Positions 30,541 through 63,407 of a DNA stretch of 64,000 nt are shown here, one piece after another. The notes under the pieces were generated by a model that did no database searches, had not been told where the DNA came from, and saw only the letters and a program-made list of their open reading frames with translations. The stretch is taken from IMG/VR virus record IMGVR_UViG_3300035505_000313, positions 11,501 to 75,500 of that record. The stretch is one strand, 5' to 3'. Origin of the DNA: a virus. Its lineage: Duplodnaviria > Caudoviricetes. The position numbers and the translations under genes were made by a program. Position 1 is the first letter of the stretch. Each line of letters starts with the position of its first letter.

Positions 30541-30584
30541 TAAAAATGGAGGATATGGTAGAAATACCATATCCTCTTATATTT

Positions 30585-33122: not shown

Positions 33123-33254
33123 AGTATAAGTCTCCTTTCTAAATAAAATAATAATCTTATAATTTATTGTTACAGGATAAGTAATACACCTAAAGGAACT
33201 TATGTCCTTTAGGTGTATAAAATATATCATATAAATAATAATATGAAGGCTAAT

Positions 33255-34154
33255 TTACTCAAGTCCAAGCTTTCTTAATCTCTCATGATGAGTGTTGTAA
33301 GCTCTTGAACGGATATCATAAATGATATTTGATGTCTCTGTCTCATTGTCACATCGATTAATGTCATATAGTCCATCTTGATGGGAAATGTCATCACCAG
33401 AACGTCCATAACTTTCAGCTACGACTTTACCAGAAGCATCACGAATATAACTTCTTACATCTTCTTTAGGTTTAACCCAGTTAAATAAATCAACACTGAT
33501 TGGCTCTTCAAATTCTCCATTACAGATTCTCTGAGAAAGCAAATCCATTTCATAGTTAAACCTCTCAATGTAAGGTGGAAGCAGAGGTACAACTGATTCT
33601 ACAGTACCAATACCAAACTCTCTAATACCTAACTTATAAAGGTCATCAATGCTTGAGTTAAGATAACCAATATTCCAAGGATGAGTGGTAATATGAACAC
33701 CTAAGTCATAAATACCTGCTTTATGTAAAGCTTCAATATTCCTAACTACAGTGTTATAAGTATTTGTACCAGTACCTTTGAATACTCTGAACATATTAGC
33801 TAATGGATGACCATCCATACTAATAGCAAAGTGCACTCTCTCTGTCTTAAGCATATCAATCAATTCGTTATTGATAATAGTTCCATTAGTGGTGATTGTG
33901 AAATCAACATCCAAGTTAGGATACTCATTAGTAACATATATTACTGTATTTCTAATGTTATCCCAAGCCATCATAGGCTCACCACCTAAGAACTCAATTC
34001 CGAATGAATCAGAAGTTCTAAACTTGATAATATTATCTAAAGTCTCTTTAACTTCTTCCCAAGTGTATGTGCTTGTCTTATCTTGTTCATAGCAGTATTT
34101 ACAAGCACAATTACATGCTTTAGTAACATGTAAAACATATGTTTCTCTTGCCAT
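33255..34154 (-). CDS. Radical SAM enzyme (anSME-like core, no SPASM domain)
   Basis: CNCACKYC, FLGGEP, ITTNGT, ISMDG. Confidence 0.88.
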   Translation of the reverse strand: MARETYVLHVTKACNCACKYCYEQDKTSTYTWEEVKETLDNIIKFRTSDSFGIEFLGGEPMMAWDNIRNTVIYVTNEYPNLDVDFTITTNGTIINNELIDMLKTERVHFAISMDGHPLANMFRVFKGTGTNTYNTVVRNIEALHKAGIYDLGVHITTHPWNIGYLNSSIDDLYKLGIREFGIGTVESVVPLLPPYIERFNYEMDLLSQRICNGEFEEPISVDLFNWVKPKEDVRSYIRDASGKVVAESYGRSGDDISHQDGLYDINRCDNETETSNIIYDIRSRAYNTHHERLRKLGLE

Positions 34155-34165
34155 AGTAAATCCTC

Positions 34166-35395
34166 CTAATCTTCTACAGTTGAATGGTGACCAGCAACAT
34201 TAACTACGTTACAGTTCTCATACTCATCCTTAATAGGCTGTAGATTTTCATCAATAAGACCAGCTTCAACTAATCTGTCTTTTACCCAATGCTGAACATC
34301 ACGCTCAACATGTGACATCATACAACGTTCTCTCCTAATAGTCTGGAAGAGATTCTGATGTCTTCCCCAGTTATCAGCAATACATCTATAACAATGGAAG
34401 CAATCACAAGTAGGATTCTCTGTTGCACAAGACATATCAGAACCATCATAATCATTGTATAACAAATCCTTCATTTCATCAATACCATCATCCAGATTAC
34501 CAATAATAGTATAGTTGTCTGGGTCATTATAATAAATTTGATGACAAGGTGAAATCAAACCTGATGCAGTAATTGATACGAAGTTCTTACCTGCACCACA
34601 CGGAGCACCAAAACCATTGATACACATAAGTGTTTTATCAATCGGTGCATAAGAATAAATGTACTGTAAATCACGTTCTTCGATAGCTTTATTTACAAGC
34701 ACTTCAGCAATCTTAATTAACTGCTCTTTGTAACTTCTTACACTTTCAATAGTATATCCATTATCAGAATGGATAGGCATAAACCAAATCCAAGGACATT
34801 TCCATTCCTCTACAAAGAACTTATAATTCTCAAACAGATACATCATGTTATCAGAAGTCAAACAAGAGTGAAGACACAATCTATTATTGAACGTACCCTC
34901 TTCTCCAAGGATTCTCTGCCAGAACTTTACACCCTCGGCAACCTTATCAAATGTACCTTTACCATCAATGGTAACACGATTCTGGTCATGACACTCCTTA
35001 ATACCATCAACAGAAATCTGTACATTGATATGACATAAATCCTTATACTTTGTAAACAGTTCCTCATACTTATCATTGAAGATAGTACCATTTGTAATAA
35101 TAGTTACTACAAATACAATACCAGTTTCCTCATCAAGCTGATGACCTATTTCAAATGCTTTTTTCATACCCTCATAATTTAATAAAGGCTCTCCACCAAA
35201 TGCTGTGATTGATACACAATCGTCACCAGTAATCTGAGCATTTTTATATAAAAAGCGAATAGCCTTTTCAACTGTCTCAACTGACATGTTCTGATTATGG
35301 TGAGCACCCAGTTCGAAACAGTACTTACAGCGTAAATTACATTGTTCGGACAAGAGTAAACTTGCCGCTGTTGGATAACAACTCATAACCAACAT
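34166..35395 (-). CDS. Radical SAM/SPASM peptide-maturase-like enzyme
   Basis: CNLRCKYC, FGGEPLL, ITNGT, QISVDG; SPASM CGAG...ISPCHQ...CDCFHCYRC...C. Confidence 0.9.
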   Translation of the reverse strand: MLVMSCYPTAASLLLSEQCNLRCKYCFELGAHHNQNMSVETVEKAIRFLYKNAQITGDDCVSITAFGGEPLLNYEGMKKAFEIGHQLDEETGIVFVVTIITNGTIFNDKYEELFTKYKDLCHINVQISVDGIKECHDQNRVTIDGKGTFDKVAEGVKFWQRILGEEGTFNNRLCLHSCLTSDNMMYLFENYKFFVEEWKCPWIWFMPIHSDNGYTIESVRSYKEQLIKIAEVLVNKAIEERDLQYIYSYAPIDKTLMCINGFGAPCGAGKNFVSITASGLISPCHQIYYNDPDNYTIIGNLDDGIDEMKDLLYNDYDGSDMSCATENPTCDCFHCYRCIADNWGRHQNLFQTIRRERCMMSHVERDVQHWVKDRLVEAGLIDENLQPIKDEYENCNVVNVAGHHSTVED

Positions 35396-35400
35396 CCTCC

Positions 35401-36378
35401 TTACTCAATAATTCCTAAATTTTTATAGGTCTTCTTGAACCCTGGACCATAGTCCCAATCATCACAAAGACCTTCAACAGTTGCCCAGTCGAACAAGATT
35501 TCTTGGTCATCATTATGACGACATCTTTCAACTGCAGAACTGCAATCCATAACGGAAAAGCTATACTTTTTGTCAAGTACTTCTTCCATGATATCATAAA
35601 CCATACCATCATCATAAAGATGATAATAGAAATCCTTAAATGCACGATACTTGTTATCAGCATAGTACTTCATAATAGCATCACGATTTCCGGGACTTAT
35701 CTGTACTTCTACAAGGTCAAGATGCTTTCCTCCTACACTATCCAGAATAGGAAGCATTTCGAATAACTTATCTCTATGTAAAGACCATGAAGGTTCTTCA
35801 ACAGTGATTCGGAATCCCATGTTAGCAGCCTTTTCCATGTTATTATAAACCTGTTTAGAGAAGAATGAAGCTGAAACATGGAAACGAAGTTCCTCAACTC
35901 TCATCTCTTTCATTCTCTTAAGATTCTCCTCATTACACAGAATACCATTTGTATATACAAAGTAGTAATGGTTAATACCATTACGGTCTCCAATATCATT
36001 CAGAATCAAAGCAAATTTCTCTAACTCATCAAGGTAAGCTACTGTCTCACCTGCGGACTGATAAGAAAAGATTGTAGGCTTGAAATTCTGAAGATTCTGT
36101 GACATAAAGAACCAATCAGCAAGCTTGCTGTTAATGGAATCCATTGTTTCCTCACCTCTATTAATATCATAATAGCAATAAGGACAGTTACACATACATT
36201 TAGTTCCAATCTGAACTCCTGAACCTTGTTCTCCAGTAAAACATTTACGACATCCTGGAGATATCTTTCCAATATGGAAAGCATGACCATTAGCGTGCAT
36301 TTCAGCACCTTTCTTGAGAAGCTCTTGCTGTCTAGCAAACTTCTCCAACTGAATCTCCTGATAAGGTACAACTCGCAT
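35401..36378 (-). CDS. Radical SAM enzyme, COG2108-like (PFL-activase-related)
   Basis: GKISPGCRKC...GTKCMCNCPYC, YTNG, ELRFH. Likely start MRVVPY at 36378 after AAGGAGG. Confidence 0.75.
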   Translation of the reverse strand: MRVVPYQEIQLEKFARQQELLKKGAEMHANGHAFHIGKISPGCRKCFTGEQGSGVQIGTKCMCNCPYCYYDINRGEETMDSINSKLADWFFMSQNLQNFKPTIFSYQSAGETVAYLDELEKFALILNDIGDRNGINHYYFVYTNGILCNEENLKRMKEMRVEELRFHVSASFFSKQVYNNMEKAANMGFRITVEEPSWSLHRDKLFEMLPILDSVGGKHLDLVEVQISPGNRDAIMKYYADNKYRAFKDFYYHLYDDGMVYDIMEEVLDKKYSFSVMDCSSAVERCRHNDDQEILFDWATVEGLCDDWDYGPGFKKTYKNLGIIE

Positions 36379-36406
36379 AATAAAATCCTCCTTCATATTA
36401 TTTTTC

Positions 36407-37294
36407 TTAATATACAAAATTGCACTTTTTGAATAACTCTTGTAAAAAAGGGTCATATTTGATTATACGCAAATTTTCTTCTCGGTAATCATTAGTCCAA
36501 GCATTATCTGGACTCTGCTTCTCACAAGCAACCCCTCCAAAGTGGAAGAAATAAGGATTCCAATTAACTCCTTGTTTACCAAGATAATCTGCAGTAGAAT
36601 AATAAATTTTTCTTCTCAATATTTCATTAAAAAAGTATGTTCCGCTATCATAACATCCATACAAGTATCTAGAATATTTATCGTTTACTTCTTTGCTTTC
36701 AATATTATCAAAGTATAAATGTTCTTTGTCTATAAGTAATTGAATGTCCATAAAAGCTAATCCCATCCAAATTCTTTTATGATAAACTTTATCATTATAT
36801 CTTTCTAATGTTAAAGGGCATATATCAGGATTATTGCTATTAAAAATATCATCATAGTTATGATTTGGAATAGAAAATATTGTTTTATCTAATATACCAA
36901 TAATATTAGCTTTTTTATGTATTACTTCTTTGAACATTATTTTTAGTGTTGCTTGACTTTTGATAATAATGTCACCATCTAAGAATAAAGCATACATAAC
37001 ATTATTTTTATGTGCATATAAGAAACATTCATTGTAAATCTTATTTACTCTAACGGTAATATTCTTTTCATCATTACTAAACCTTGACCATGTTATAACT
37101 TTATAACCTTTACTTTCCGCCCAAGCTTTAGTATCATCTGTAGAATCATCATCAAAAATAACTATGTTATCTTTAAACATAGGATAAAATGTTAGTACAG
37201 ATTCACTAGCAAGCTCAAGATATGGTCTTATATTCTTACCAGAAATAAAAATATAAAAACCTCCTAATTCTTTTAATTCTCTTATATAATCCAT
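36407..37294 (-). CDS. Divergent GT-A (GT2-like) glycosyltransferase
   Basis: IVIFDDDSTDDT, LFLDGDII (DxD), YDSGT, FFHFGG. Confidence 0.7.
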   Translation of the reverse strand: MDYIRELKELGGFYIFISGKNIRPYLELASESVLTFYPMFKDNIVIFDDDSTDDTKAWAESKGYKVITWSRFSNDEKNITVRVNKIYNECFLYAHKNNVMYALFLDGDIIIKSQATLKIMFKEVIHKKANIIGILDKTIFSIPNHNYDDIFNSNNPDICPLTLERYNDKVYHKRIWMGLAFMDIQLLIDKEHLYFDNIESKEVNDKYSRYLYGCYDSGTYFFNEILRRKIYYSTADYLGKQGVNWNPYFFHFGGVACEKQSPDNAWTNDYREENLRIIKYDPFLQELFKKCNFVY

Positions 37295-38397
37295 TATCTT
37301 GCATACTCCTCTATTAAATTTGTATCAATATCTTCTACTTTACCAAACTCATCAGTTATATCAAAGTTGAAGTGCTTTACAATAAATTCTGCTTTACTAT
37401 ACTTTCTAATAGTTCTTATATTATTAGCTAAATACATTTCAGCAGTACTTTTATTATTATTAATTTCATCTTCTCTTATCTTATTTTCTCTAGAAAAATT
37501 TTCTTTAAGTTTTAGAAATGATGACCTAAAACCTAAATGGCATAAATAAGGTTTACCATAAGGAAAATTATCTTTGCTATCATTAGATTTATCAGCATTT
37601 ATTGTATATTCAAACTTAGAAAATGGAATATTAAATAGCCTTACATCACGATAAAATAAAGAACCACTATCCAAATAAGGTGGATTAGATAGACACTCCA
37701 AATAAGGGTCATCTAATGGGTCAAATAGCATATTATTTTCCTTAAGAGTTGATAAATCTAATAAACCATGAAATAAATGAATCCTATATGGAAGAATTCT
37801 TTTACATTCAGGTTTGTAATTATCTAAAGTATCATGAAGCGTTTGTATATAATCTTTAGGAACACCTTTTGATGGTGCTTCATCATATACATTACTTCCC
37901 ATAGATGAAATATTAACAACCATAGCAGAATTATCTAAATACATAGTATCAAACATAGTGTCTAAAAAGTAATCGAAGAAAAATACATCACCATCATTCA
38001 TAAGTAAATATCTAGTTTGTACTTGTTCAAATATATCATTGAACATCACATTTACTTTATATGAATAACATAATGAACCATACTTTGAACTCATTCTTTC
38101 TTCATAGTTTTCTATATATTTCCTATATTTAGGAGACCATGTAATAACTCTAATATCCATTTCTTCTAAAGCTTCTCTAGTTCCATCATTTGAATCATCA
38201 TCAAATACAACTATATTCTTTTTAAGATATGGATAAAAATACAAGAATGAATTAATAGCAAATATTAAAGTTCCTTTAATATTCTTAGCTGAAAAAGCTA
38301 CTGTTAAATCATCATACACATGCCTATTAAATGTATAGTGAATCAAACTTTTAAGCTTATCCTGTTCTGAATAAGGGGTGTTTTCAAATTGAATCAT
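37294..38397 (-). CDS. Divergent GT-A (GT2-like) glycosyltransferase, paralog of 36407-37294
   Basis: IVVFDDDSNDGT, LLMNDGDVFF, YLDSGS, LCHLG. Confidence 0.7.
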   Translation of the reverse strand: MIQFENTPYSEQDKLKSLIHYTFNRHVYDDLTVAFSAKNIKGTLIFAINSFLYFYPYLKKNIVVFDDDSNDGTREALEEMDIRVITWSPKYRKYIENYEERMSSKYGSLCYSYKVNVMFNDIFEQVQTRYLLMNDGDVFFFDYFLDTMFDTMYLDNSAMVVNISSMGSNVYDEAPSKGVPKDYIQTLHDTLDNYKPECKRILPYRIHLFHGLLDLSTLKENNMLFDPLDDPYLECLSNPPYLDSGSLFYRDVRLFNIPFSKFEYTINADKSNDSKDNFPYGKPYLCHLGFRSSFLKLKENFSRENKIREDEINNNKSTAEMYLANNIRTIRKYSKAEFIVKHFNFDITDEFGKVEDIDTNLIEEYAR

Positions 38398-38419
38398 AAA
38401 TTATCCTCCTAGTCAAAAT

Positions 38420-38455
38420 AAATGGGATAAGATTACGAATAATCTTATCCCATTT
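38420..38455. terminator. Terminator-like hairpin inside the Cys-repeat/radical SAM locus
   Basis: 16 bp inverted repeat AAATGGGATAAGATTA/TAATCTTATCCCATTT. Confidence 0.65.
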
Positions 38456-38458
38456 ATT

Positions 38459-39145
38459 TTATTTGTTAAGTCTGTCTTCAATACGTCTTAAAGATGTAAG
38501 AATAGCAGTTAAACTCTGAATCAACAAAGTTTCTGTTTCTTCATTCTCAATAACAGCAGATGTTTCTTCTTTCTTACATCCACAGTTACATGATTCTGCT
38601 TCTTTAGCAGCTTGTTGTTTTCTAAGTTCACCTACAAATGTTCCGTCACCATAAACTTTTTCACTATTACGTTCCATGAATTCCTTTACAGTTTCGTTAA
38701 TATGAGGGAAATTATCTTCATTCCATTTAGCTTCTTCTTGTTTATCAAGAAGGTCTTCTGGATAATGAACTCCTTCTGGGTCTTCATATCTTAGATAATC
38801 TGGATTATGAGATAAATCATCAACAACTTGATATTTCTTAGGATTATATTCTTTCTTCTTAGGTTCTTCACCAACACGAACAACAACATCACATCCATTG
38901 GACGTATCAGGATTATTTACGAATGGACTTCTGTCTACAACATCACACCCATCAGCAGTATCAAATTCAACTTCCCTACAATTACTGATGAAATCTTTAC
39001 TTACTTGGTCATCGTCATTAATAGGAACACATACTACAACATCACAGTTACTAGTATCAACGTCTCCTCTGCATTGACAATCACATCCAACTTCATCTAC
39101 AGAGTAACCTCCAGGATAGTATTTACTTCTATCAAATAAAGCCAT
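38459..39145 (-). CDS. Acidic protein with DT(S/A)xG?CDVV repeats
   Basis: GCDCQCRG, three CDVV motifs and SCNCGC. Confidence 0.65.
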   Translation of the reverse strand: MALFDRSKYYPGGYSVDEVGCDCQCRGDVDTSNCDVVVCVPINDDDQVSKDFISNCREVEFDTADGCDVVDRSPFVNNPDTSNGCDVVVRVGEEPKKKEYNPKKYQVVDDLSHNPDYLRYEDPEGVHYPEDLLDKQEEAKWNEDNFPHINETVKEFMERNSEKVYGDGTFVGELRKQQAAKEAESCNCGCKKEETSAVIENEETETLLIQSLTAILTSLRRIEDRLNK

Positions 39146-39210
39146 AATAAGATTCTCCTCCTAATTTTATTTTTAATAAATTATTTCTTCTAGCTTTTAA
39201 AGATTAAACT

Positions 39211-39537
39211 TTATTTACAAGCAGAGCTTACAACTTTGTTAGAGCTTCCACAACCACTATATGTAGGTGTGCTACAAGCAGAAGAAGTTACCTTATTAGA
39301 ACTTCCACAAGAACCATAAGTAGCTGTAGATGGTTTAACTGTACCACATGAAGATGTAGTAGACTTAGAAGTAGAATTCTTAGTCTCTACTACCTTAGTA
39401 TCTACAGTCATACCACACTGACCATAAGTAATAGTAGTTGTCTGAACCAGCTTCTTGAGGTTCTTAGAGTTACATGCTGAATAGGTTGATTCTGGAACTT
39501 TTACGTTCTTCTGTCCATACTTATAAAACTTAGCCAT
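39211..39537 (-). CDS. Short Ser/Thr/Cys-rich protein (precursor-peptide-like)
   Basis: Start MAKFYKYG after AAGGAGG. Repeats YGSCGSSNKVTSSAC and YSGCGSSNKVVSSAC. Confidence 0.7.
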   Translation of the reverse strand: MAKFYKYGQKNVKVPESTYSACNSKNLKKLVQTTTITYGQCGMTVDTKVVETKNSTSKSTTSSCGTVKPSTATYGSCGSSNKVTSSACSTPTYSGCGSSNKVVSSACK

Positions 39538-39559
39538 AATGTTTTCCTCCTTAAATCTT

Positions 39560-41155
39560 TTAATTATCATATGGTGCATACATATCTACAACATTGCAAG
39601 AACATACATCATTACATGCACAAGTTGTTCTAGTTTCACATAAGGGAACTGAACGAGAATTACATCCACATGTAGTAAAGCTTGTTCTATCTACACAATC
39701 ACAGCTTTGACTAGAAGCAGTACGTGATACACAACTATAATCAGTTGAGTAAACTGTTCTAGCTTCACATATTGTATCTAATGCAGTAGTTGTACGCACA
39801 TTACATGTACAATCTACAGCTTGTGTTGTACGTGCAAGGCATACTTTATCAGCAGCATAAGCTGTCCTTGATGCACAATCCGAACTGTATTCTATATAGT
39901 TTGTTGACGTTCTTGATGTACAAACTGACTTTTGGGTTGTTCTACTATTACAAGTACATATTTCTTTGTAGTCAAAAACTTGGTCATTTTTGTCTATATT
40001 ACAACTGCAAGAAACTCCTATATATGCTGTAACTGATACCCTAGATATACAAGTATAATATGAGTAAGTACGTGAATTACAAGTGCAATTAGCTCCACTA
40101 TCAGAGCAAGCAGAATAACTTCCAGAATATCCTGAAGCTATTTTTACAGCATTACATGTACAAGCAAATATACTATCAGAAGTATTTACTGAATTACAGT
40201 CACATGCTGGAACATATTGAGTTGTAGTTCTAGCTGGACATACACTATTATTTGAATTTGTACGTGTGTCACATAAGCAACAACTATTATATTGCTTAAA
40301 ACTAAGTGTATCACTATAACCAACAGTATTACAAAAACAAGCTGGTTTTACTGCAGATGTACCTACAGTATTACATTTACATGAAGCACCTACTCCATAA
40401 TCAACTGAAGTCCTAGTATTACATTCACATGATTCTGAGTAAGTAGTTCTAGATACACAATCGCATACATCTAAAACCTTACCATCTTTGTCAGGTGCTA
40501 TTCTAGAAAAACATGTACAAGTTGTTCCATAAGTAATATCTTTCTTAGGTTCTTGAACTATACTAACTCTTGAACCACATAATATAGCATCTTCATGGTC
40601 ATTTGCTGTTCTAGAATCACAATCACAAGTTACTACACCTAAATCAATATATCCTGCTGTTCTAGAATCACATACACAAGTTATTCCATACACATTAGGA
40701 GAGTACTCAGAAGTTCTAGAATTACACATACAAGCTTCATCAGCATGAATTCTAGAATTACATTCGCAACTTGCATAATAATAAGTCCTTGCTTGACAGA
40801 TAGGAGTAGAATATGGTTTCTCAACTTCTTCACATTCCAAAGTTCTAGAATTACATTCACAAGTGGATGTATTATAAGTAACTATAGTTGTTCTAGACCC
40901 ACATATCATTGTGGTATTTGGTATAAAGTTTGTGACTTCTTTTAAATCTGCTGGTGTCTTTTCCATTACATGATGAATATGACCATTACAATCAGCTCTA
41001 TCAATAGCTTCTCTACGATTATTCATATCTTGTACTAGATTCTTAAGCTGATTTAAAGAACCACGAAAGTTAGCAAAAGGGTCATAACCACGAAGCTTAA
41101 CCATTTCTTCATGTATATCACCTAATGATATTTCTTTTTTATTCCATTCAGACAT
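39560..41155 (-). CDS. CxCxxR repeat protein with shared N-terminal domain
   Basis: 531 aa with many CxC(N/D)(S/T)RT motifs after SLGDIH...SLNQLK...CNGH. Confidence 0.85.
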   Translation of the reverse strand: MSEWNKKEISLGDIHEEMVKLRGYDPFANFRGSLNQLKNLVQDMNNRREAIDRADCNGHIHHVMEKTPADLKEVTNFIPNTTMICGSRTTIVTYNTSTCECNSRTLECEEVEKPYSTPICQARTYYYASCECNSRIHADEACMCNSRTSEYSPNVYGITCVCDSRTAGYIDLGVVTCDCDSRTANDHEDAILCGSRVSIVQEPKKDITYGTTCTCFSRIAPDKDGKVLDVCDCVSRTTYSESCECNTRTSVDYGVGASCKCNTVGTSAVKPACFCNTVGYSDTLSFKQYNSCCLCDTRTNSNNSVCPARTTTQYVPACDCNSVNTSDSIFACTCNAVKIASGYSGSYSACSDSGANCTCNSRTYSYYTCISRVSVTAYIGVSCSCNIDKNDQVFDYKEICTCNSRTTQKSVCTSRTSTNYIEYSSDCASRTAYAADKVCLARTTQAVDCTCNVRTTTALDTICEARTVYSTDYSCVSRTASSQSCDCVDRTSFTTCGCNSRSVPLCETRTTCACNDVCSCNVVDMYAPYDN

Positions 41156-41170
41156 ATATTCTTCTCCTTT

Positions 41171-42148
41171 CTATTTATTAAATATACTAACTCCACCATC
41201 ACAAGTGCATACTGATTGGCAAGCACATGATACTCTAGATTCACATTCGGAAGTTGAACGAGAATTACAATAACAACCAAAGTTAGTAGTTCTATCAACA
41301 CAGCTACATGAGAATACTTTAGTTACTCTAGAGTTACAAGCACAATCCGTTATTCTTGCAGTTCTATTATTACACTCACAAGATTCTGTTGCTGTACTTC
41401 TAGAATTACATGAACATGTTACAACTGTTCTATTCTCGCAACTACATCCAACATAAGTTAAAATCTCATCAGCATTACATTCACAGCCTTTAGGAGCTTC
41501 TTTATCTATTTGTATTCTTGAATCACAAGTACATACTTCGACTAACTCTGACGGACAGTCGGAGTTAGGATATTTTACATAAGATGTAACACTATCCATA
41601 GTGTTAGTTACTCTTGATTGACAGGTAATTATAGGTGTATATGTATAACCACTTCTGTCATTACATAAACAATCACTTTCATTACCATATATAGAATCAT
41701 CTCTATAAGTAGTTCTAGCTAAACAAGTTACATCAGGAACATAATTAGTCCTAGATGAACAAACAGTATCAACGCTATATGTAGTCCTAGAGCTACATAT
41801 AGCGGATACTTGTGGATTTGTTACTTTATCACACGTTAAAGTTCTAGTGTGACATTCACATGTAATATTATTATTGCAATCACATGTGTATAACTGTTCA
41901 GAAGAACAGAGAGATTTTATATTTGGTAGTCTTTTAAATACTGTGTTAGTATTTACTTCATTTCCGTAATTTTCTACTGGCATTGAAAAGTCAGTATGTT
42001 CAGGACAATAACTTTCATTTCTTACTTCATTCATAGAATTAAGCATTTCTTTTAGCTCATTCAAAGAATCGTATTCTTCAGTTTTATATCCACCCTTACT
42101 TTTCAATCCACCATGTAAATCACCTAATGAATCTCTATAATCAGCCAT
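41171..42148 (-). CDS. CxCxxR repeat protein with shared N-terminal domain
   Basis: 325 aa; SLGDLH...SLNELK...CPEH, then repeats. Confidence 0.85.
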   Translation of the reverse strand: MADYRDSLGDLHGGLKSKGGYKTEEYDSLNELKEMLNSMNEVRNESYCPEHTDFSMPVENYGNEVNTNTVFKRLPNIKSLCSSEQLYTCDCNNNITCECHTRTLTCDKVTNPQVSAICSSRTTYSVDTVCSSRTNYVPDVTCLARTTYRDDSIYGNESDCLCNDRSGYTYTPIITCQSRVTNTMDSVTSYVKYPNSDCPSELVEVCTCDSRIQIDKEAPKGCECNADEILTYVGCSCENRTVVTCSCNSRSTATESCECNNRTARITDCACNSRVTKVFSCSCVDRTTNFGCYCNSRSTSECESRVSCACQSVCTCDGGVSIFNK

Positions 42149-42170
42149 ATATAAAACCTCCTATGAATTA

Positions 42171-43853
42171 TTATTCATATTTAATTACTTGGTTACAGCT
42201 ACATATATTTGACATACTAGCTGTACGTGATGGACACAATGAACCAGTTCTTGTATTACAACCACATGATGTAGCGATTGTTCTAGAAGCACAATCGGTA
42301 ACAACATTAGTTCTTGTATTACAAGTACAATTTGCAGTATATACAGAATCATACACTCTATCTGGTTCATCAACTGACCCCATCTCAATCTTATTATAAG
42401 TACCTTGTGTTCTTTCAACACAATCACAAATACTAGTTGAAGCTACACGACTAGCACAAATGTCTGAATAAACATAAGCAGTATTAGCTGTTCTGTTTAC
42501 ACAAGGACAATCTGCTACAGATGTAGCTACCGTTCTTACATTACATATACAATCCACTTTAGCAGTTGTTCTAGATGCACATGTTACTTGAGTTAAGTTA
42601 ACTGTATGAGAACTACAACCACCATCACATGTTCCATAACCAGTACCACATACACTATAATAACTAGTACCACAAGAGGATATATAACCGAATGTATCAC
42701 ATTCTGAATAATAAGAAGAAGCCATACTATCATTACCTCCATTTAAACTTTGATTACTACTACATACACTATAGACCACTGTATCAGTGTTACTATTATA
42801 GTAAGCAAAACTACCACCACCATATAGTTCAACGTAACTATCTGATACTGGTACTACGTTTGAAGGACAACTATAAGTAGTCCTTGCATCACACAAACAA
42901 TTATCATTTGTGCTTTCATATATTGTATCACTTCCACCATAAGCGATATTCTTTGTACAATCAACAGTTGCTACTGTATTGCAAGAACAGCCAGTTCTTC
43001 CATTACATATACAAGTAGTATCTGTTTTATTATATGAATAATCAGGAACAGTTATCTTATCAGAAGTATAACCAGTTCTTGAATTACATACACAAGTAGT
43101 TCTAGAATTACATGAACACATTTCACATGCACTGTAATCCACAACACTGTCATTAACTTTATCACTATCAACTGTTGTTCCTACCCTTGAACCACATACT
43201 GTTTTTGTTCTAGAGTTACATGAACAATCTCCACATCCACTAGTTAACCAGTCAATAGCATAATCACTAGTTGTAGAATAAGTTACCCTTGAACCACATA
43301 CTGTTTTTGTTCTAGAGTTACATGAGCAATCTCCACATCCACTAGTTAACCAGTCAATAGCATATTCACTAGTTGCAGAAGTTCCAGCTCTTGAACCACA
43401 TACTGTTTTTGTTCTAGAGTTACATGAACATGTTCCACATCCACTAGTCAAATAATCTGCAGCATATGTGTTACTAACTGAATAAGTTACCCTTGAACCA
43501 CATACTGTTTTTGTTCTAGAGTTACATGAACATGTTCCACATCCACTAGTCAAATAATCTGCAGTATAAGCCTTAGAAGCTGTAGTTCCAGTTCTTGAAC
43601 TACAATCTACAGCTGTTCTAGATGAACATACAGAAGCTGCAGATGTTGATGTTTCAGTAGTTGTTCTAGATACACATGCACAAACATAATCTCTAGAGTA
43701 AGAACCACCTACATAGCTTGATGTATAAGCACCACCAACATAAGTTGTATAATAAGCACTACCTACATAATTAGTAGTATAAGCACCACCAACATACACT
43801 GATGTATAAGTATTTCCATATGTAGCGGTATAATAACTTGCATAAGAACCCAT
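42171..43853 (-). CDS. CxCxxR repeat protein with Tyr/Gly N-terminal repeats
   Basis: 560 aa. Four YVG(G/S)(A/S)Y 9-mers, then four 34-aa (102 nt) repeats. Confidence 0.85.
   Translation of the reverse strand: MGSYASYYTATYGNTYTSVYVGGAYTTNYVGSAYYTTYVGGAYTSSYVGGSYSRDYVCACVSRTTTETSTSAASVCSSRTAVDCSSRTGTTASKAYTADYLTSGCGTCSCNSRTKTVCGSRVTYSVSNTYAADYLTSGCGTCSCNSRTKTVCGSRAGTSATSEYAIDWLTSGCGDCSCNSRTKTVCGSRVTYSTTSDYAIDWLTSGCGDCSCNSRTKTVCGSRVGTTVDSDKVNDSVVDYSACEMCSCNSRTTCVCNSRTGYTSDKITVPDYSYNKTDTTCICNGRTGCSCNTVATVDCTKNIAYGGSDTIYESTNDNCLCDARTTYSCPSNVVPVSDSYVELYGGGSFAYYNSNTDTVVYSVCSSNQSLNGGNDSMASSYYSECDTFGYISSCGTSYYSVCGTGYGTCDGGCSSHTVNLTQVTCASRTTAKVDCICNVRTVATSVADCPCVNRTANTAYVYSDICASRVASTSICDCVERTQGTYNKIEMGSVDEPDRVYDSVYTANCTCNTRTNVVTDCASRTIATSCGCNTRTGSLCPSRTASMSNICSCNQVIKYE
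43185..43590 (-). repeat. Coding tandem repeat, 4 x 102 nt
   Basis: ACCACATACTGTTTTTGTTCTAGAGTTACA recurs at 43191, 43293, 43395 and 43497. Confidence 0.9.
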
Positions 43854-43867
43854 TAATCACACACCTC

Positions 43868-45019
43868 CTAACATCCACCATAACAAGCAGAGGAACTTGA
43901 AGAATATGTGTTAGTATTGCAATAACAATCAGTTCTAGAATTACATGAACATACACTATTACAAGAGCAAGCAGCATTACATGTACAAACACTTTCACAT
44001 GTGCAACAAGCAGAAGTACTTGTTCTACCATTACAACTACAAGTAGTGCTGTAATTAGTTCTTCCATGACAACTGCAAGATGTTACTGAACTTGTTCTAC
44101 CATTACAACTACAAGAATAAGTAGTACTTGTTCTACCATTACAATCACATACACTTCTTGAACCACATTGAACTGTAGCTGATGTGTATGAATAAGATGT
44201 AGTTCTTGATTCACAAGTACAACCATAACAAGCTGAATAAGTAGTATCTGTATAATTATAAGTTCTAGAATTACAAGAACAAGCAGTTCTAGCATTACAA
44301 GAGCATCCTGTGTCTGTATCATAATAAGTTTTATCAGAAGCATAATCTGCTGTTACAGTAGATGTTGTTCTGGAATTACAAGAACAGGTTGTTCTAGAAT
44401 TACAAGTACATTTAGTATCTTCACTATAATATGACTTATCAGCAGTATATAATGTGTCACCATAATTATATGTCCTAGCATTACATGTACAAGTTGTTCT
44501 GGAATTACAAGTACATTTAGTATCTTCACTATAATATGATTTATCTGATGTGTAATCTGCTGTTACATTAGATGTTGTTCGACTACCGCATACAGTAAGT
44601 GTTCTAGAATTACAAGAACATTTAGTATCTGTATCATAATATGAATTATCAGCAGTATATAATACATCACTAGTACCTTTTGTTCTAGTATTACATGAAC
44701 AAGCAGTTCTAGAATCACATGTACAAATTGAATTTCCATATACATCATCAAAATAAAAATCTCCACATGAAGAACTATAAGCTGAACGTGATGCACAAGC
44801 AACCCCAGTTCTAGAATTACATGAACACTCTCCACAACCACTAGTATAAAAATCTTCTGTATAAGTACTTGAATTTGTATAAGTAGTTCTAGCTGTACAT
44901 ACAATAGATGTTCTAGTATTACAAGTACATTTAGTACCTACACCATAAGAATAATCTGATACTTTATCACCTTGACTTATTGCATAAGTAGTACGTGAAT
45001 TACATACACAATATGACAT
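43868..45019 (-). CDS. CxCxxR repeat protein
   Basis: 383 aa beginning directly at a motif (MSYCVCNSRT); four D(K/N)(S/T)YYxxDT(K/G)C units. Confidence 0.85.
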   Translation of the reverse strand: MSYCVCNSRTTYAISQGDKVSDYSYGVGTKCTCNTRTSIVCTARTTYTNSSTYTEDFYTSGCGECSCNSRTGVACASRSAYSSSCGDFYFDDVYGNSICTCDSRTACSCNTRTKGTSDVLYTADNSYYDTDTKCSCNSRTLTVCGSRTTSNVTADYTSDKSYYSEDTKCTCNSRTTCTCNARTYNYGDTLYTADKSYYSEDTKCTCNSRTTCSCNSRTTSTVTADYASDKTYYDTDTGCSCNARTACSCNSRTYNYTDTTYSACYGCTCESRTTSYSYTSATVQCGSRSVCDCNGRTSTTYSCSCNGRTSSVTSCSCHGRTNYSTTCSCNGRTSTSACCTCESVCTCNAACSCNSVCSCNSRTDCYCNTNTYSSSSSACYGGC

Positions 45020-45049
45020 AATATTCCTCCTTTCATTTAGTATTATATT

Positions 45050-45080
45050 ATGTGGTAAACAAGAATCTTGTTTACCACAT
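45050..45080. terminator. Hairpin between Cys-repeat genes
   Basis: ATGTGGTAAACAAGA/TCTTGTTTACCACAT inverted repeat. Confidence 0.6.
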
Positions 45081-45090
45081 AATCTTAAAT

Positions 45091-45591
45091 CTATCTAGCA
45101 GAGCCATAAAGCCTTACATTGCAATCGCATGATACCCCACATTCTGAATAAACATCAGTTGTTCTAGCATCACAATCGCATGTTCCGCCACATGCTGTAT
45201 AAACATAATTACTTCTAGTATTACATGAACAAGCATCACCACATGCAGTATATGCTGTTGATGTTCTTACATTACAAGTACAACTTGCTGCATAAGTACA
45301 AGCTGAGTAACCTCCAGTTCTTGAATGGCAGTCACAACCTGTTTGGCACATAGTATAAGCATAAGTTCTACTAGCACATAAAGTAGCATCACCACCACAA
45401 TGCGTATAATAAGCAGTTCTATTATTACATGAACATACTTGTTGTACGGAAGTTCTAACATTACAAGAACATTCAACAGTTGTTGCTGTCCTTGATTCAC
45501 AAGTACAACTTACGCCACCTCTAGAAACACATGAACATGAGGCGTAACTTCCAGTAGCATAAGCAGTTCTACCATTACAACTACAAGACAT
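45091..45591 (-). CDS. CxCxxR repeat protein
   Basis: 166 aa with 27 Cys and ten CxCxxR motifs (counted by hand). Confidence 0.85.
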   Translation of the reverse strand: MSCSCNGRTAYATGSYASCSCVSRGGVSCTCESRTATTVECSCNVRTSVQQVCSCNNRTAYYTHCGGDATLCASRTYAYTMCQTGCDCHSRTGGYSACTYAASCTCNVRTSTAYTACGDACSCNTRSNYVYTACGGTCDCDARTTDVYSECGVSCDCNVRLYGSAR

Positions 45592-45606
45592 ATTATCACC
45601 CCCTTC

Positions 45607-46779
45607 TTAACAAGCACTACTACAACTGCTATCTGCAACTAAAGAAACACAATCGCTATATGAATAAGTATAATAAGAAGTTCTAGACTTACAATCACAA
45701 CCAGATGTATAAACATTACCCAAACAGCATGAAGCATAACCTGTTCTTGATGCACAATCTGCACCAACATATTGATTTACATTGCCACTACAATCTGCAT
45801 AAGCAACAGTTGTTTTTGTTTCTGTTCGGGAAACACAACTACATTCTTTCTTTGTTGCACTAACTACATTAGTTCTAGTTTGACATAAAGACACTGCAAC
45901 ATAAGTTTTAGTTTCAGCTAAATTATCTTTACATACGCAACCAGTCCAATATGCTGTGGTATTCTTATCTCTAGATTCACAAGCACAACCTTCATAACAA
46001 GCTGAGTATACATATTCAGCTCTTGAATTACAACTACAACCAGTATATGTAAATGTAATTTGTGAAGTTCTTGATTCGCATAAACATGAATATGTTGTAG
46101 GAGTATTAACTACATCAGATGTTGTTGTATAAGTGGTTCTATTTTCACAATCACATGTACTATTAGCATAAGTTGTACCTGTTCTTGTGTTACAATCACA
46201 GGCTGGAGTTTCAGTACCATTTAAGTTTGCTACTGTATTACAACTACAGTTGTAATCAGTTGTCTGTCTTGTATTACAACTACATACTGTAGTTTGTGTA
46301 TCTTTAGTTGATACTGTATTACAAGTACAGCCATACCCAGTACCTACACTTGTTCTAGTATCACATTTACAAACTGAATTAGTAGTATCACTATAAAGTG
46401 AATCACTTTTATTTATATAAGTAGTATCAACTTTAATCCCCGATACTTCAGAACACTCAGAAATTCTAACATCACAAGCACAAATATTATCATCAACTTT
46501 TTGGTCATAAGTAGACACTAACTTCTTAGTTCCAGCTTTTTGCAAGGACTTATTTATATCCATCAAACTAAGATTAGCTGAAGTCAAACTAAAGTCTTGA
46601 TGAGAAGCACATTGCACTGGTAAACCATCTACAATATCAACAGTCTGAGAACGTGTTTTATTCATACTGTTTACCAAATTTCTTAACTGATTAAGAGATT
46701 TGTATTTATCAGTATCTATTTCAAAACCTTGCTTAAGTTCAGCTTCTTGATGAAGTTCATTTAATGAATTTCTACTCAT
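45607..46779 (-). CDS. CxCxxR repeat protein with shared N-terminal domain
   Basis: 390 aa; SLNELH...SLNQLR...CASH, then repeats. Confidence 0.85.
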   Translation of the reverse strand: MSRNSLNELHQEAELKQGFEIDTDKYKSLNQLRNLVNSMNKTRSQTVDIVDGLPVQCASHQDFSLTSANLSLMDINKSLQKAGTKKLVSTYDQKVDDNICACDVRISECSEVSGIKVDTTYINKSDSLYSDTTNSVCKCDTRTSVGTGYGCTCNTVSTKDTQTTVCSCNTRQTTDYNCSCNTVANLNGTETPACDCNTRTGTTYANSTCDCENRTTYTTTSDVVNTPTTYSCLCESRTSQITFTYTGCSCNSRAEYVYSACYEGCACESRDKNTTAYWTGCVCKDNLAETKTYVAVSLCQTRTNVVSATKKECSCVSRTETKTTVAYADCSGNVNQYVGADCASRTGYASCCLGNVYTSGCDCKSRTSYYTYSYSDCVSLVADSSCSSAC

Positions 46780-46849
46780 AAGGTAGACCTCCTTTCAGAA
46801 AATATAATATTATTAATATAATGAATAGTTCTTATTATATAAAATGAAT

Positions 46850-46882
46850 ATGAGATATACTAGATAAACTAGTATATCTCAT
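46850..46882. terminator. Hairpin downstream of 46896-49043
   Basis: ATGAGATATACTAG/CTAGTATATCTCAT inverted repeat. Confidence 0.6.
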
Positions 46883-46895
46883 ATTTTTTATTTAT

Positions 46896-49043
46896 TTAAG
46901 ATGTATGACTTGTACATACATTTTTGGTTTCTGTAGTATTCTTATTAACTGTATTAACTGATGCAGTTGTATACTGATTTACAGCATTACAATAGCATTT
47001 AGCACTACATCCTACAGTTGTTCTTGATGAGCAGATAGTAGATGTTGTTGCTGATGTTCTAGATACACAATCACAAGTGGTTGTGTAGTTAGTTCTACCA
47101 TCACATGAACATGTAGAAGTTGTACCTGTTCTAGAAGTACATTCAGAAGATGTTATATAATAAGTTCTACCATCACATGAACATGTAGAAGTTGTACCTG
47201 TTCTAGAACTACATTCAGATGTTGTGGTTTTATTAGTTCTAGAATTACATAAACAAGCTACTGTTCCACCTGTTCTAGAACTACATTCAGACGTAGTAGT
47301 ACTTGATGTTCTACCATCACATGAACAAGCTACTGTTCCACCTGTTCTAGAACTACATTCAGATGTTGTGGTTTTATTAGTTCTAGAATTACATAAACAA
47401 GCTACTGTTCCACCTGTTCTAGAACTACATTCAGATGTTGTAGTGTTATTAGTCCTAGAATTACATAAACAAGCTACTGTTCCACCTGTTCTAGAACTAC
47501 ATTCAGATGTTGTAGTGTTATTAGTCCTACTATCACATAAACAAGCTACTGTTCCACCTGTTCTAGAACTACAATCAGCAGAACTATAATATTCAGTTCT
47601 TACATCACATAAGCATGAAGTAGTTGCACCAGTTCTAGAACTACATTCTGAAGACGTATATGAATAAGTTCTAGCTGCACAAGTACAAGAATAAGCATAA
47701 GTAGTTCTAGAAGTACATGTAGAATCATATGCTGAATAGTAACCAGAAATTCTACCATTACATGAACAAGAATAACTTGATGAATAACCAGAAATTCTAC
47801 CATTACATGAACAAGAATAAGCTGAATAGTAATATGTTCTAGCATTACAAGAACAAGAATAACCTGATACTGAGTTACAACTACATGCAGTTCTACTACT
47901 ACACACTGTACTACCTTCAAGAAGATAATAACCAGAACAATCTCCATATACAAATAAATCATAAACATATACATAATAACTTCCACAAGGAATACTAGCT
48001 TGATAGTAAAAAATTTCCCAACTACATCCTACTTTATTACAACTACAATTATAAGTTGCTCTACTAGAACATGTATAATAAGAATATACTCTAACATTAC
48101 AATCATATCCTGTAGCTGTATATGTTCTAACATTACAATCATAATTTGTAGTAGTAGTTGTTCTAGTATTACAATCATAAGATGTAGCTGTATATGTTCT
48201 AGCATTGCAATCAGTATAACTATAAGTTCTAGCATTGCAATCAGTATAACTATAAATTCTACTAGAACATATACCAGTTCTAGATGAACAATTACTACCT
48301 TGATAAGTACTTCTACTAGAACATATAGCTGTTCTACTACTACAATCACTACCTATATCTGTAGTTCTTGCTGTGCATATAGCTGTTCTACTACTACAAT
48401 CACTACCTATATCTGTAGTTCTTGCTGTGCATATAGAAGTTCTACTACTACAATCACTACCTATATCTGTAGTTCTTGCTGTGCATATAGCTGTTCTACT
48501 ACTACAATCACTACCTTGTGTATAAGTTCTACTGGAACATATAGAAGTTCTACTACTACAATCACTACCTATATCTGTAGTTCTTGCTGTACATATAGCT
48601 GTTCTACTACTACAATCGCTACCTTGTGTATAAGTTCTACTAGAACATATAGCTGTTCTACTACTACAATCACTACCTTGATAGTAAGTTCTACTAGGAC
48701 ATGTTCCTGTATCTGTTCCATATGTAGTTCTACTTACACAATCACATGAATCACTAAATTCATATTGTTTAACATTGTGAGCACTACATTTTAAGTTCGT
48801 TATATTACTTGCTGTATCTTTAACAAATCCCATACTTAAAGGGGAAGAAGACGTAATGGTAAAATTCTTATGACCACTACAATCAACTGTATTTCCACCA
48901 AAAGTAGAAGCATTTCGTTCTGAATTTAAACTAGTTAAAGCTGAAGTTAAAGTTTGTAAATCTTTATATCCTGAAGAATAAGAACTACTAACAGACCCTT
49001 TAGCGTCTATTAAATTTTGTAGCTCTTTATAAGAAATTCCCAC
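46896..49043 (-). CDS. Largest CxCxxR repeat protein, with mirror-symmetric repeat arrays
   Basis: 715 aa: shared N-domain, 8 x 18-aa array, aromatic-rich centre, then a 24-aa array. Confidence 0.85.
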   Translation of the reverse strand: MGISYKELQNLIDAKGSVSSSYSSGYKDLQTLTSALTSLNSERNASTFGGNTVDCSGHKNFTITSSSPLSMGFVKDTASNITNLKCSAHNVKQYEFSDSCDCVSRTTYGTDTGTCPSRTYYQGSDCSSRTAICSSRTYTQGSDCSSRTAICTARTTDIGSDCSSRTSICSSRTYTQGSDCSSRTAICTARTTDIGSDCSSRTSICTARTTDIGSDCSSRTAICTARTTDIGSDCSSRTAICSSRSTYQGSNCSSRTGICSSRIYSYTDCNARTYSYTDCNARTYTATSYDCNTRTTTTTNYDCNVRTYTATGYDCNVRVYSYYTCSSRATYNCSCNKVGCSWEIFYYQASIPCGSYYVYVYDLFVYGDCSGYYLLEGSTVCSSRTACSCNSVSGYSCSCNARTYYYSAYSCSCNGRISGYSSSYSCSCNGRISGYYSAYDSTCTSRTTYAYSCTCAARTYSYTSSECSSRTGATTSCLCDVRTEYYSSADCSSRTGGTVACLCDSRTNNTTTSECSSRTGGTVACLCNSRTNNTTTSECSSRTGGTVACLCNSRTNKTTTSECSSRTGGTVACSCDGRTSSTTTSECSSRTGGTVACLCNSRTNKTTTSECSSRTGTTSTCSCDGRTYYITSSECTSRTGTTSTCSCDGRTNYTTTCDCVSRTSATTSTICSSRTTVGCSAKCYCNAVNQYTTASVNTVNKNTTETKNVCTSHTS

Positions 49044-49199: not shown

Positions 49200-49685
49200 A
49201 TGACAGCTAAAGAAAAAAGAGCTAAAGTAAAGAAAGCATTATTGTCTAGAGTAGGTAAAAATACATATACTCAAGGTGCTAATAGAACTCAGGTTGGTTC
49301 TGGGTATGGTGACTGTTCAGCTACATCAAGATGGGCATATCTATCTACTCATAAGATTGATATTGGTATCAATACTGAAGCTCAGCTTAAATCTTCTAAG
49401 AGTAAGAAAGTCGATGTTAAGATTACGAATGGTATTCCTCAGAAGTCTAAACTTCGTGTCGGTGACTTATTCTACTTTAGAGGAACAAATGATTCTCGCT
49501 ATCAAGGGGTAGGACATGTTGAGGTTTATATTGGTAATGGTAAGCTTTGTGGTCATGGTTCTGGTAAAGGACCTACTATCAAGGATATGGAAGCTTACTG
49601 TAAGTATAGACAAAATGCCAAGTCTACTTCTAAGCTTAAGAATCAAGGTCTTATTGAAGTAAAACGTGTATTCTTTGATGATTAA
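49200..49685 (+). CDS. NlpC/P60 cell-wall peptidase (endolysin-like)
   Basis: YTQG...GDCS, GDLFYF, GHVEVYIGNG..CGHG catalytic Cys/His/His. Confidence 0.82.
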   Translation: MTAKEKRAKVKKALLSRVGKNTYTQGANRTQVGSGYGDCSATSRWAYLSTHKIDIGINTEAQLKSSKSKKVDVKITNGIPQKSKLRVGDLFYFRGTNDSRYQGVGHVEVYIGNGKLCGHGSGKGPTIKDMEAYCKYRQNAKSTSKLKNQGLIEVKRVFFDD

Positions 49686-49711
49686 TGTAAAATATAAAGG
49701 AGATAAAACAA

Positions 49712-50437: not shown

Positions 50438-50692
50438 ATGCAACCGTTTAGAAGTGAAACAGATAGACCTATTTCACCTTGTAAGGATTGTAAAGATAGG
50501 TCTATAGAACCTGTTAACTGTCATACTAATTGTGAGGCTTACTTAAAATACAAGAAAGAAAATGATGAGTTTTCTGAAAAGTATAAAAATTTTAGAATAA
50601 ATGAAGCTGACCTTGTAAAGAGGAAAGCTGTTCTAAAAGCATTAAAAAAGAGACGTGAATCTAAAAGTAAACCTTACAAAATATTTTTCTAG
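50438..50692 (+). CDS. Small Cys-rich phage protein
   Basis: PCKDCKDR...CHTNCEAYLKYK. Confidence 0.55.
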   Translation: MQPFRSETDRPISPCKDCKDRSIEPVNCHTNCEAYLKYKKENDEFSEKYKNFRINEADLVKRKAVLKALKKRRESKSKPYKIFF

Positions 50693-50704
50693 GAGGATTT
50701 TATT

Positions 50705-51058: not shown

Positions 51059-51167
51059 TATATAAATTTGAGAGGAATGATGAAACTACATCATTCCTCT
51101 CTTTTTGTCTAAAAATTTATGTTAACACAATCATAACTATAAAACTTAGAGAAAAGGAGTAAGTAAA

Positions 51168-53678: not shown

Positions 53679-53681
53679 TAG

Positions 53682-56820: not shown

Positions 56821-56830
56821 GTGACACTAA

Positions 56831-63366: not shown

Positions 63367-63407
63367 ATTAAACCTCCTGTAATAATATTTTTTCCTTAAT
63401 CTATTGT

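Follow-up and report, generated by a model that had tools for sequence, protein, structure and literature searches.

The DNA analysed here (hereafter the window) is a stretch of 64,000 nucleotides from the virus record IMGVR_UViG_3300035505_000313 (positions 11,501 to 75,500 of that record; Duplodnaviria, Caudoviricetes), and our subject is a run of minus-strand genes at window positions 33255 to 49043 in which an array of cysteine-rich repeat proteins is followed by radical S-adenosylmethionine (SAM) enzymes. Besides coming from a virus record, the window is recognisable as phage DNA by its Dda-like and DnaB-like helicases and the beta subunit of a phage multisubunit RNA polymerase. The run opens with eight cysteine-rich open reading frames (ORFs), tightly packed on the minus strand from 49043 down to 39211 with intergenic gaps of 14-116 nt. 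Four of the eight share a roughly 95-residue N-terminal domain (the N-domain), which is missing from the other four; the E-values given for it below (1e-14 to 1e-32) are from a hidden Markov model (HMM) profile of which these same four proteins are part.

46896-49043, minus strand: Cys-repeat protein of 715 aa, with N-domain (HMM E 2.9e-14) and 48 C..R units, 14 of them as CxCxxR
45607-46779, minus strand: Cys-repeat protein of 390 aa, with N-domain (HMM E 1.6e-27)
45091-45591, minus strand: Cys-repeat protein of 166 aa, no N-domain, 16% Cys, 10 CxCxxR units, no Lys
43868-45019, minus strand: Cys-repeat protein of 383 aa, no N-domain, 18 CxCxxR units
42171-43853, minus strand: Cys-repeat protein of 560 aa, no N-domain, Tyr-rich at its start
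41171-42148, minus strand: Cys-repeat protein of 325 aa, with N-domain (HMM E 9.8e-33)
39560-41155, minus strand: Cys-repeat protein of 531 aa, with N-domain (HMM E 3.7e-31) and 25 C..R units
39211-39579, minus strand: small Lys/Ser/Cys-rich protein of 122 aa (108 from a later ATG), with YGSCG and SSAC units and no C..R unit

Seven of these ORFs (39560-49043) are built from C-x-x-R units, the exception being 39211-39579. The seven repeat proteins (3070 aa in total) contain 156 matches to C..R, 89 to C.C..R, and 124 to C..RT, whereas 2000 residue shuffles of the same proteins gave means of 19.3, 2.2, and 3.0 and maxima of 32, 7, and 10, respectively, i.e., an enrichment of at least eight-fold. 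A preliminary description of the window, made from its letters alone, had reported eight co-oriented Cys-rich ORFs, seven of them carrying the motif, and these counts confirm it. When the fusion protein at 29089-30540 (described below) is included, Arg stands exactly three residues after Cys in 161 of 185 cases (87%), with Thr following the Arg in 126 of the 161 units and Ser or Ala preceding it in 118. The consensus can be written as C-(S/T/D)-C-(N/D/V)-(S/A)-R-T, or C-(S/G/T/A)-(S/A)-R-T in its one-Cys form; units without the Arg mostly have Val in its position (CxCNxV), and the most frequent spacing from unit to unit is 12 residues. The proteins consist of 10% Cys, 15% Ser, 15% Thr, and 7% Tyr, with Pro (1.2%), Trp, His, and Phe near zero. 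One 34-aa unit of the 560-aa protein is absent, in frame, from a variant (L003:2303-3883) found in another metagenome sample and otherwise 99.96% identical to the window, and because near-identical variants differ here by the loss of exactly one unit, repeat number varies in natural populations. Two other readings of the unit were discarded: N-S-R-T as an N-glycosylation sequon, since Arg occupies +2, and C-x-S-R as a sulfatase tag, which the spacing rules out.

Behind the repeats, on the same strand and with gaps of 5-65 nt or overlapping, lie the enzyme genes. Bit scores refer to the Pfam families PF04055 (radical SAM, cut-off 29.5 bits) and PF00535 (GT2, cut-off 23.3 bits), and RRE stands for the recognition element by which many maturases of peptides that are ribosomally synthesised and modified after translation (RiPPs) bind a leader.

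38459-39145, minus strand: acidic protein of 228 aa, without a family match, in which three CDVV units, a single unit resembling CxCxxR and a helix at the C-terminus are seen
37294-38397, minus strand: GT2 glycosyltransferase of 367 aa, PF00535 29.9 bits, above the cut-off
36407-37294, minus strand: GT2-like protein of 295 aa, PF00535 22.3 bits, slightly under the cut-off
35401-36456, minus strand: third radical-SAM protein, 351 aa, CX3CX2C at residues 87-94, PF04055 22.9 bits (weak)
34166-35395, minus strand: core radical-SAM/SPASM enzyme of 409 aa, PF04055 48.5 bits, CX3CX2C, no RRE
33255-34154, minus strand: core short radical-SAM enzyme of 299 aa, PF04055 58.6 bits, CX3CX2C as its one cluster motif, no SPASM domain

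The profile matches thus agree with the gene list given earlier for this part of the run (an acidic Cys protein, two glycosyltransferases, and three radical-SAM enzymes, one of them with SPASM). The best NCBIfam match of the SPASM enzyme (34166-35395) is the PapB ranthipeptide maturase NF047865 at 156.5 bits (E 9.9e-46), which spans residues 10-332 of the enzyme and positions 4-306 of the 330-position profile and does not reach that family's cut-off of 340 bits. Weaker matches are to the SCIFF, CcpM, CefB, QhpD, and CXXX-repeat maturases; that to the SCIFF maturase (TIGR03974) scores 113.6 bits against a cut-off of 425 and begins at profile position 98. With scores so far under the curated cut-offs, the enzyme is a member of none of the matched families. 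The closest solved structure is CteB (PDB 5WGG, 1.9e-29), with residues 10-372 of the query aligned to 98-449 of the chain, and since the alignment starts at CteB residue 98, the RRE leader-binding domain is absent from the SPASM enzyme. The Pfam SPASM model was not among its matches at E ≤ 0.01; the SPASM cysteines at positions 266, 284, 323, 330, 335, 338, and 358 are invariant in eight orthologues. No such auxiliary-cluster cysteines were found in the short enzyme 33255-34154.

The minus-strand unit runs on past the enzymes and has an 881-aa protein as its last gene. This gene, a fusion protein on the opposite strand, and three hairpins complete the inventory of the locus:

30585-33230, minus strand: knob-bearing protein of 881 aa, with three tandem knob domains at residues about 455-690
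29089-30540, plus strand: repeat-fibre fusion of 483 aa, with five CxCxxR units in its N-terminal half, a coiled coil, and a shared C-terminal domain
46846-46886, minus strand: T-tailed hairpin of 17-18 bp located between the first two repeat genes, a possible partial terminator
38415-38460, no strand assigned: perfect 20-bp palindromic hairpin between the repeat and acidic genes and the enzyme genes, a possible attenuator
30548-30577, no strand assigned: bidirectional terminator hairpin that closes the minus-strand unit

The C-terminal domain of the fusion is 38% identical (3e-10) to part of the neighbouring 516-aa protein (24747-26297). The knob domain comprises roughly 70 residues and is predicted by AlphaFold2 (AF2) as a small beta sandwich with a pLDDT (predicted score in the local distance difference test) of 93.8. 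The structures nearest to this model are the AP22 gp53 tail fibre, the R1/R2 pyocin fibre tips, a cyanophage tailspike receptor-binding domain, and H-type lectins, at template modelling (TM) scores of 0.55-0.72 and weak E-values of 0.03-0.1. At the sequence level, the window knob shares 35-44% identity with the domain that ends proteins matching PF12571 and PHROG tail-fibre families. An ESM Atlas comparison of the knob protein gave scores of at most 0.86, with its C-terminal 190 residues leading to Peptidase_G2/preneck-appendage proteins, which we take as a lead only.

To place the locus, viral contigs and one genome per prokaryotic species were searched with the two core enzymes. Orthologues at 30-45% identity are found in jumbo phages (138-235 kb), in smaller phages of higher GC content, and in Peptostreptococcaceae, Tissierella, Thermoanaerobacterales, other Clostridia, Dethiothermospora halolimnae SD1, and a Prolixibacteraceae metagenome-assembled genome. 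In all 12 lineages with DNA beyond the SPASM gene, a CxCxxR-repeat protein adjoins it (loci L007, L008, L009, L012, L017, L036, L043, and L046-L051, with GC contents from about 28% to 47% and higher), and the same repeat consensus as in the window is found in other cassette lineages. In 11 of these lineages the next gene encodes a radical-SAM protein of about 300 aa whose start resembles that of 33255-34154, to which it is 36-43% identical in the cassettes checked; L051 differs in having two copies of the third-type radical-SAM gene at this place. The usual gene order, kept across unrelated phages and prophages, is tail fibre with lectin-like knob, SPASM radical SAM, CxCxxR protein, and short radical SAM. 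Among SPASM matches at 36% identity or less (L052 onward), no CxCxxR neighbour was seen. The preliminary description had proposed that radical-SAM enzymes and repeat proteins belong together, and had named in advance, as the test that could refute this, radical-SAM genes standing without the repeats in related genomes; the outcome favours coupling, as the repeat protein is adjacent in 12 of 12 lineages and only the more distant SPASM enzymes are without it.

The cassette is likewise tied to fibre genes. In nine lineages, the gene immediately upstream of the SPASM gene ends in a knob domain; in L012 the knob is found within the cassette. The upstream knob gene of L046 matches Phage_tail_fib (PF12571), those of L012 and L036 match PHROG tail-fibre families, and in L046 and L050 the knob gene comes after a Baseplate_J gene. 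L050 (NZ_JBAKFX010000018.1) belongs to a cultured isolate, Dethiothermospora halolimnae SD1, and carries a complete cassette in a myophage-type tail module, in the order Baseplate_J, knob fibre, SPASM enzyme, two repeat proteins (CxCxxRC), short radical SAM, and M23 peptidase. In L007/L008 and L050, the cassette adjoins lysis genes. The earlier suggestion that the repeat proteins have to do with virion fibres is supported by prophage cassettes placed behind Baseplate_J and tail-fibre genes and by the repeat-fibre fusion in the window.

The remaining enzyme genes are distributed differently. For the glycosyltransferase 37294-38397, L049 has a 35%-identical orthologue, flanked there by the repeat gene and the short radical-SAM gene, and four near-complete jumbo genomes with the cassette yielded none. 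Orthologues of the third radical-SAM gene (35401-36456) occur only in L051, in two copies; the third radical-SAM gene of L009 and L043 is a different one. Judged by this distribution, the core is two of the three radical-SAM genes (34166-35395 and 33255-34154), while the third is accessory and the glycosyltransferases are a lineage-specific accessory; in this respect the earlier interpretation is not fully supported. Among GenBank phages, the 15.8-kb region had no megablast match and the 390-aa repeat protein no tblastn match, although the low-complexity filter may have hidden some of the latter, and all matches of the SPASM enzyme were below 30% identity (e.g., Phass-1 and CP220-like Campylobacter phages). 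Among the loci examined, the window is the extreme and richest instance, combining seven repeat paralogues as candidate substrates with a fibre-type fusion, three knobs in tandem, one additional radical-SAM gene, and genes for two glycosyltransferases.

A CLCD(V/S/C)R unit is present in the C-terminal tail of 10 of 13 SPASM orthologues (L036, L037, L012, L017, L009, L043, and L046-L049), usually behind GNNPxNP and about 30-60 residues past the SPASM domain; the window copy is degenerate (34166-34230). Such a substrate-like tail suggests that the active site recognises the repeat unit itself, and the tail could be a pseudo-substrate or a self-modification site. In L043 (5965-8286), the SPASM enzyme continues into a fused acidic extension of ~370 residues, which has a C-terminal helix besides one GCDIV and two CLCxxR units and bears a loose resemblance to the acidic protein 38459-39145. 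We considered the latter as a split-off version of this extension, and BLAST gave no significant match; the CDVV/CDIV and CxCxxR units common to both are a hint only.

The N-domain was used to define the repeat-protein family more widely. A word-indexed protein search yielded only 2 and then 9 relatives, all unnamed, and it was an exhaustive profile search that revealed the family: 114 clusters among 1.84 billion representatives, with the domain nearly always N-terminal. At least three CxC are present in 108 of the 114 clusters and at least three CxCxxR in 95; the median length is 239 aa and the median number of units 8, and many members end in a conserved C-x-C-N-x-x-x-x-F tail. For the members looked up, no source gives a name. 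Both informative contigs reached from N-domain members (2/2) have an adjacent radical-SAM gene of roughly 300 aa, and the window shows the full combination of N-domain match, at least three CxCxxR, and radical-SAM neighbour. The 715-aa protein of the window is longer than every well-matching hit (a marginal one of 925 aa has no Cys repeats), no other single member has as many units as its 48, and elsewhere the loci examined have at most two repeat genes each. A related AT-rich phage (L005:52-5303 and L006) has at least five tandem N-domain paralogues with few CxxR units, whose middles are very Tyr-rich, with Tyr runs alternating with Ser, Thr, and Val; substrate-gene expansion is thus not confined to the window.

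In an AF2 model of the 325-aa protein, residues 1-82 are helical with pLDDT 60-80, so that the N-domain comes out as helical at moderate confidence, and a fold search with the domain gave a best Z of 4.6, nothing above helical-domain background. The L007/L008 loci keep both enzymes, and their repeat protein opens directly with CxCxxR; they have neither N-domain nor knob. Because the enzyme has no RRE, half of the window ORFs have no N-domain, and L007/L008 do without it altogether, the N-domain is probably not a classical leader. Taken across lineages, N-domain and knob occur together in 11 and are both absent in one, a pattern that fits a docking role, with a single independent loss as its basis. 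A complex prediction of the N-domain (residues 1-95) with the three knobs (residues 440-665) scored 0.00, which is evidence neither way. The preliminary description had also called the system RiPP-like, which does not hold in the strict sense: there is no RRE, the N-domain is missing from some substrates, and the cassette has no protease.

Taken together, we read the locus, with somewhat more belief than doubt, as an expanded copy of a conserved phage module in which radical-SAM enzymes modify a Cys-repeat protein that works with the tail fibre. Since the same gene set stands beside tail-fibre genes in many other phages, the target of modification in phages is probably one of their own proteins, associated with the fibre; we infer that the repeat proteins are located in the virion. 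The chemistry probably consists of Cys thioether staples, by analogy with the archaeal pair CrpC/CrpA discussed below. The repeat genes would be transcribed first, from a divergent promoter region near 49100, and the enzyme genes behind the hairpin at 38415-38460, which by comparison with many peptide-maturation operons appears attenuator-like. The SPASM enzyme, which has no RRE and for that reason probably recognises a short repeat unit directly, would read C-x-C-(N/D/V)-(S/A)-R-T and form a ranthionine-type thioether from the Cys sulfur to a carbon in the side chain of a residue three or four positions downstream. The acceptor could be the +3 residue, which is Asn, Asp, or Val after the first Cys and Arg or Val after the second, or else the +4 Thr, so that a double unit would yield two overlapping small rings, a proposal that would account for the fixed spacing and for the near-exclusive Arg at its position and that is modelled on PapB (C-X3-D), CteB (which joins Cys to Thr), and CrpC. 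A second step on the same units may fall to the short radical-SAM enzyme (33255-34154), and in the window lineage the third radical-SAM enzyme and the two GT2 enzymes may make additional modifications, perhaps by placing sugars on the spacers rich in Ser, Thr, and Tyr. The helical N-domain would serve as an assembly or docking domain and not as a RiPP leader, and the products would be fibre-associated, rapidly diversifying surface modules.

The nearest published parallel is CrpC of Methanococcus voltae, whose substrate CrpA, a protein of 29 kDa, receives ranthionine bridges from it at C-X-X-(Q/D/M/V) units (2026; PMC13692751). Similar to the phage system, a SPASM enzyme gene there stands beside the gene of a protein-sized substrate with many short Cys repeats, paralogous substrates have a common N-terminal domain, Cys lies about three residues before the acceptor, and the repeat region is poorly predicted by AlphaFold. 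In contrast, CrpC has an RRE and the window enzyme has none, scoring 69.8 bits against the CrpC family (TIGR04463, cut-off 525) and over its N-terminal half only; the motif is CxCxxRT in the phage and C-X-X-Q/D in 17-residue units in CrpA; the phage cassettes add an obligatory second radical-SAM enzyme without SPASM; and they sit in a tail-fibre module, not on an archaeal chromosome. PapB, which makes freyrasin from PapA, is likewise a compact SPASM enzyme acting on repeated short Cys-Xn-acceptor units, but PapA is a peptide of 40-50 residues with six C-X3-D units, compared with up to 48 units in 715 residues in the window, and unlike in the PapB system, no sign of leader cleavage was found in the window repeat proteins. 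CteB makes a Cys-to-Thr side-chain thioether in CteA (SCIFF, thermocellin), and Thr is the commonest residue at +4 in the window; the window enzyme has nothing that corresponds to the RRE of about 97 residues at the N-terminus of CteB. From the side of virion assembly, the tail-fibre assembly or cap proteins of myophages and R-pyocins occupy the same place behind a fibre gene with a lectin-like knob and share with the repeat proteins a conserved N-terminus followed by a variable remainder. They have neither Cys repeats nor radical-SAM partners, however, and no sequence or fold similarity to the repeat proteins was found. Protein-scale SPASM thioether stapling has thus been published once, and the phage system differs from it in RRE, motif, second enzyme, and fibre context. 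No description of a radical-SAM/Cys-repeat system in phages was found in the literature searched, and the earlier statement that no described phage system has this architecture now has to be qualified by the protein-scale thioether stapling by a SPASM enzyme shown in an archaeon (PMC13692751).

Several observations weigh against the proposed modification of a fibre-associated protein. All maturase-family scores of the SPASM enzyme are far under the curated cut-offs. The repeat region of the 325-aa protein is predicted by AF2 with pLDDT of about 30 and no interpretable fold, so that there is no model support for the proposed donor and acceptor being able to meet. Glycosyltransferases and the third radical-SAM gene are missing from most cassettes, the 881-aa knob protein has no PHROG or Pfam match, and CxC-rich proteins can simply bind metals.

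Of the alternatives, the one that survives best is that the enzymes do act on the repeats but with other chemistry, such as formylglycine formation, epimerisation, a Tyr/Arg carbon-carbon crosslink, or another oxidation. We consider this unlikely. It draws on the anaerobic sulfatase-maturating enzyme (anSME), a SPASM enzyme that likewise has no RRE and reads a short local Cys...Arg tag on a full-size protein, and whose family and structure also match the window enzyme (TIGR03942, 83.1 bits, E 1.9e-23, cut-off 349; PDB 4K37, 2.4e-10); the unit C-x-(S/A)-R resembles the sulfatase tag C-x-(P/A)-x-R. The repeats are Tyr-rich as well, and the presence of two or three distinct radical-SAM enzymes implies that several reactions take place. 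However, anSME modifies one tag per protein and not many, the window units have Arg at +3 rather than +4 and no Pro (a residue that makes up 1.2% of the repeat proteins), and thioether-maturase matches are far stronger (PapB 1e-45, CteB 1.9e-29), while the sole protein-scale SPASM precedent on Cys repeats is a thioether (PMC13692751).

The repeat proteins might instead be unmodified metal-binding or disulfide-rich proteins, with the knob, a cofactor, or a small molecule as the radical-SAM target, which we judge quite improbable. Repeats of 12 residues with Cys and Thr do occur in disulfide-braced beta-solenoids, which counts for this explanation, and CxC is typical of metallothionein-like metal sites. 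But metal binding leaves the invariant Arg and Thr beside the Cys unaccounted for, enzymes and repeats are strictly adjacent across otherwise dissimilar lineages, including the knob-less L007/L008, and the CLCDxR unit in the tails of 10 of 13 enzyme orthologues points to recognition of the motif.

That modified repeat proteins are made late in infection to be released or to act inside the cell, such as a bacteriocin-like agent, host-takeover factor, or metal scavenger, and not as virion parts is very improbable. In its favour, RiPP-type clusters mostly make secreted products, the cassette adjoins lysis genes in L007/L008 and L050, and CrpA has been linked with pyrite-dependent growth and perhaps with the binding of metals (PMC13692751). 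Against it, the cassette has no protease or exporter and a conserved place directly behind the tail-fibre gene, the N-domain co-occurs with the fibre knob, and the window fuses repeats to a fibre-type C-terminal domain.

If the phage enzymes do modify a fibre-associated repeat protein, one can go further and imagine, tentatively and with a good deal of doubt, that its products are interchangeable receptor-binding fibre caps made from an enzymatically stapled scaffold, with many thioether rings in each protein and in this lineage glycosylated, the four N-domain paralogues and the three tandem knobs forming a combinatorial host-range device. Such a scaffold would display Tyr/Ser/Thr-rich loops and evolve by gain and loss of repeat units; it would represent a new class of cross-linked virion protein and, at 48 units per chain, the largest known radical-SAM substrate of the peptide type. 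Thioether stapling by radical-SAM enzymes is known from small peptides of the antibiotic kind and, since 2026, from a single archaeal protein. The more general proposal would already tie this type of enzyme to the viral host-recognition apparatus in more than 100 sequence clusters, all without annotation. If true, it would explain how some phages of anaerobes harden or diversify their fibre tips, give functions to several common "hypothetical" phage genes, and provide leader-independent enzymes for a seven-residue tag that would be useful in protein engineering. The cultured Dethiothermospora halolimnae SD1, with its cassette-bearing prophage region, makes the question testable.

Other parts of the window were noted in passing. 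On the plus strand, a divergent block at 49200-55979 encodes an NlpC/P60 peptidase, the fourth radical-SAM protein of the window (SPASM-like, 51168-52247), and two clear GT2 proteins (54002-54835 and 54801-55979); its conservation with the cassette was not found in other phages, and we do not count it as part of the system. Within the same block, a 235-aa protein (52971-53678, plus strand) matches PHROG 12252, a family of unknown function, over its full length (5e-62), and two adjacent RNase H-like genes (PF00075; the second match is weak) follow at 56068-57721 (plus strand). Five short contigs of an animal-gut metatranscriptome (2025) match 33233-33646, 44971-45186, and 45579-45947 with no mismatch, which shows the presence of the phage in a gut sample and not transcription. 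The helicases mentioned at the outset lie on the minus strand at 7944-9293 (Dda-like) and 14417-16105 (DnaB-like), the RNA polymerase beta subunit lies at 61987-63444 (minus strand; phrog_2987, 1.5e-72), and the 75.5-kb contig as a whole looks like a piece of a large phage.

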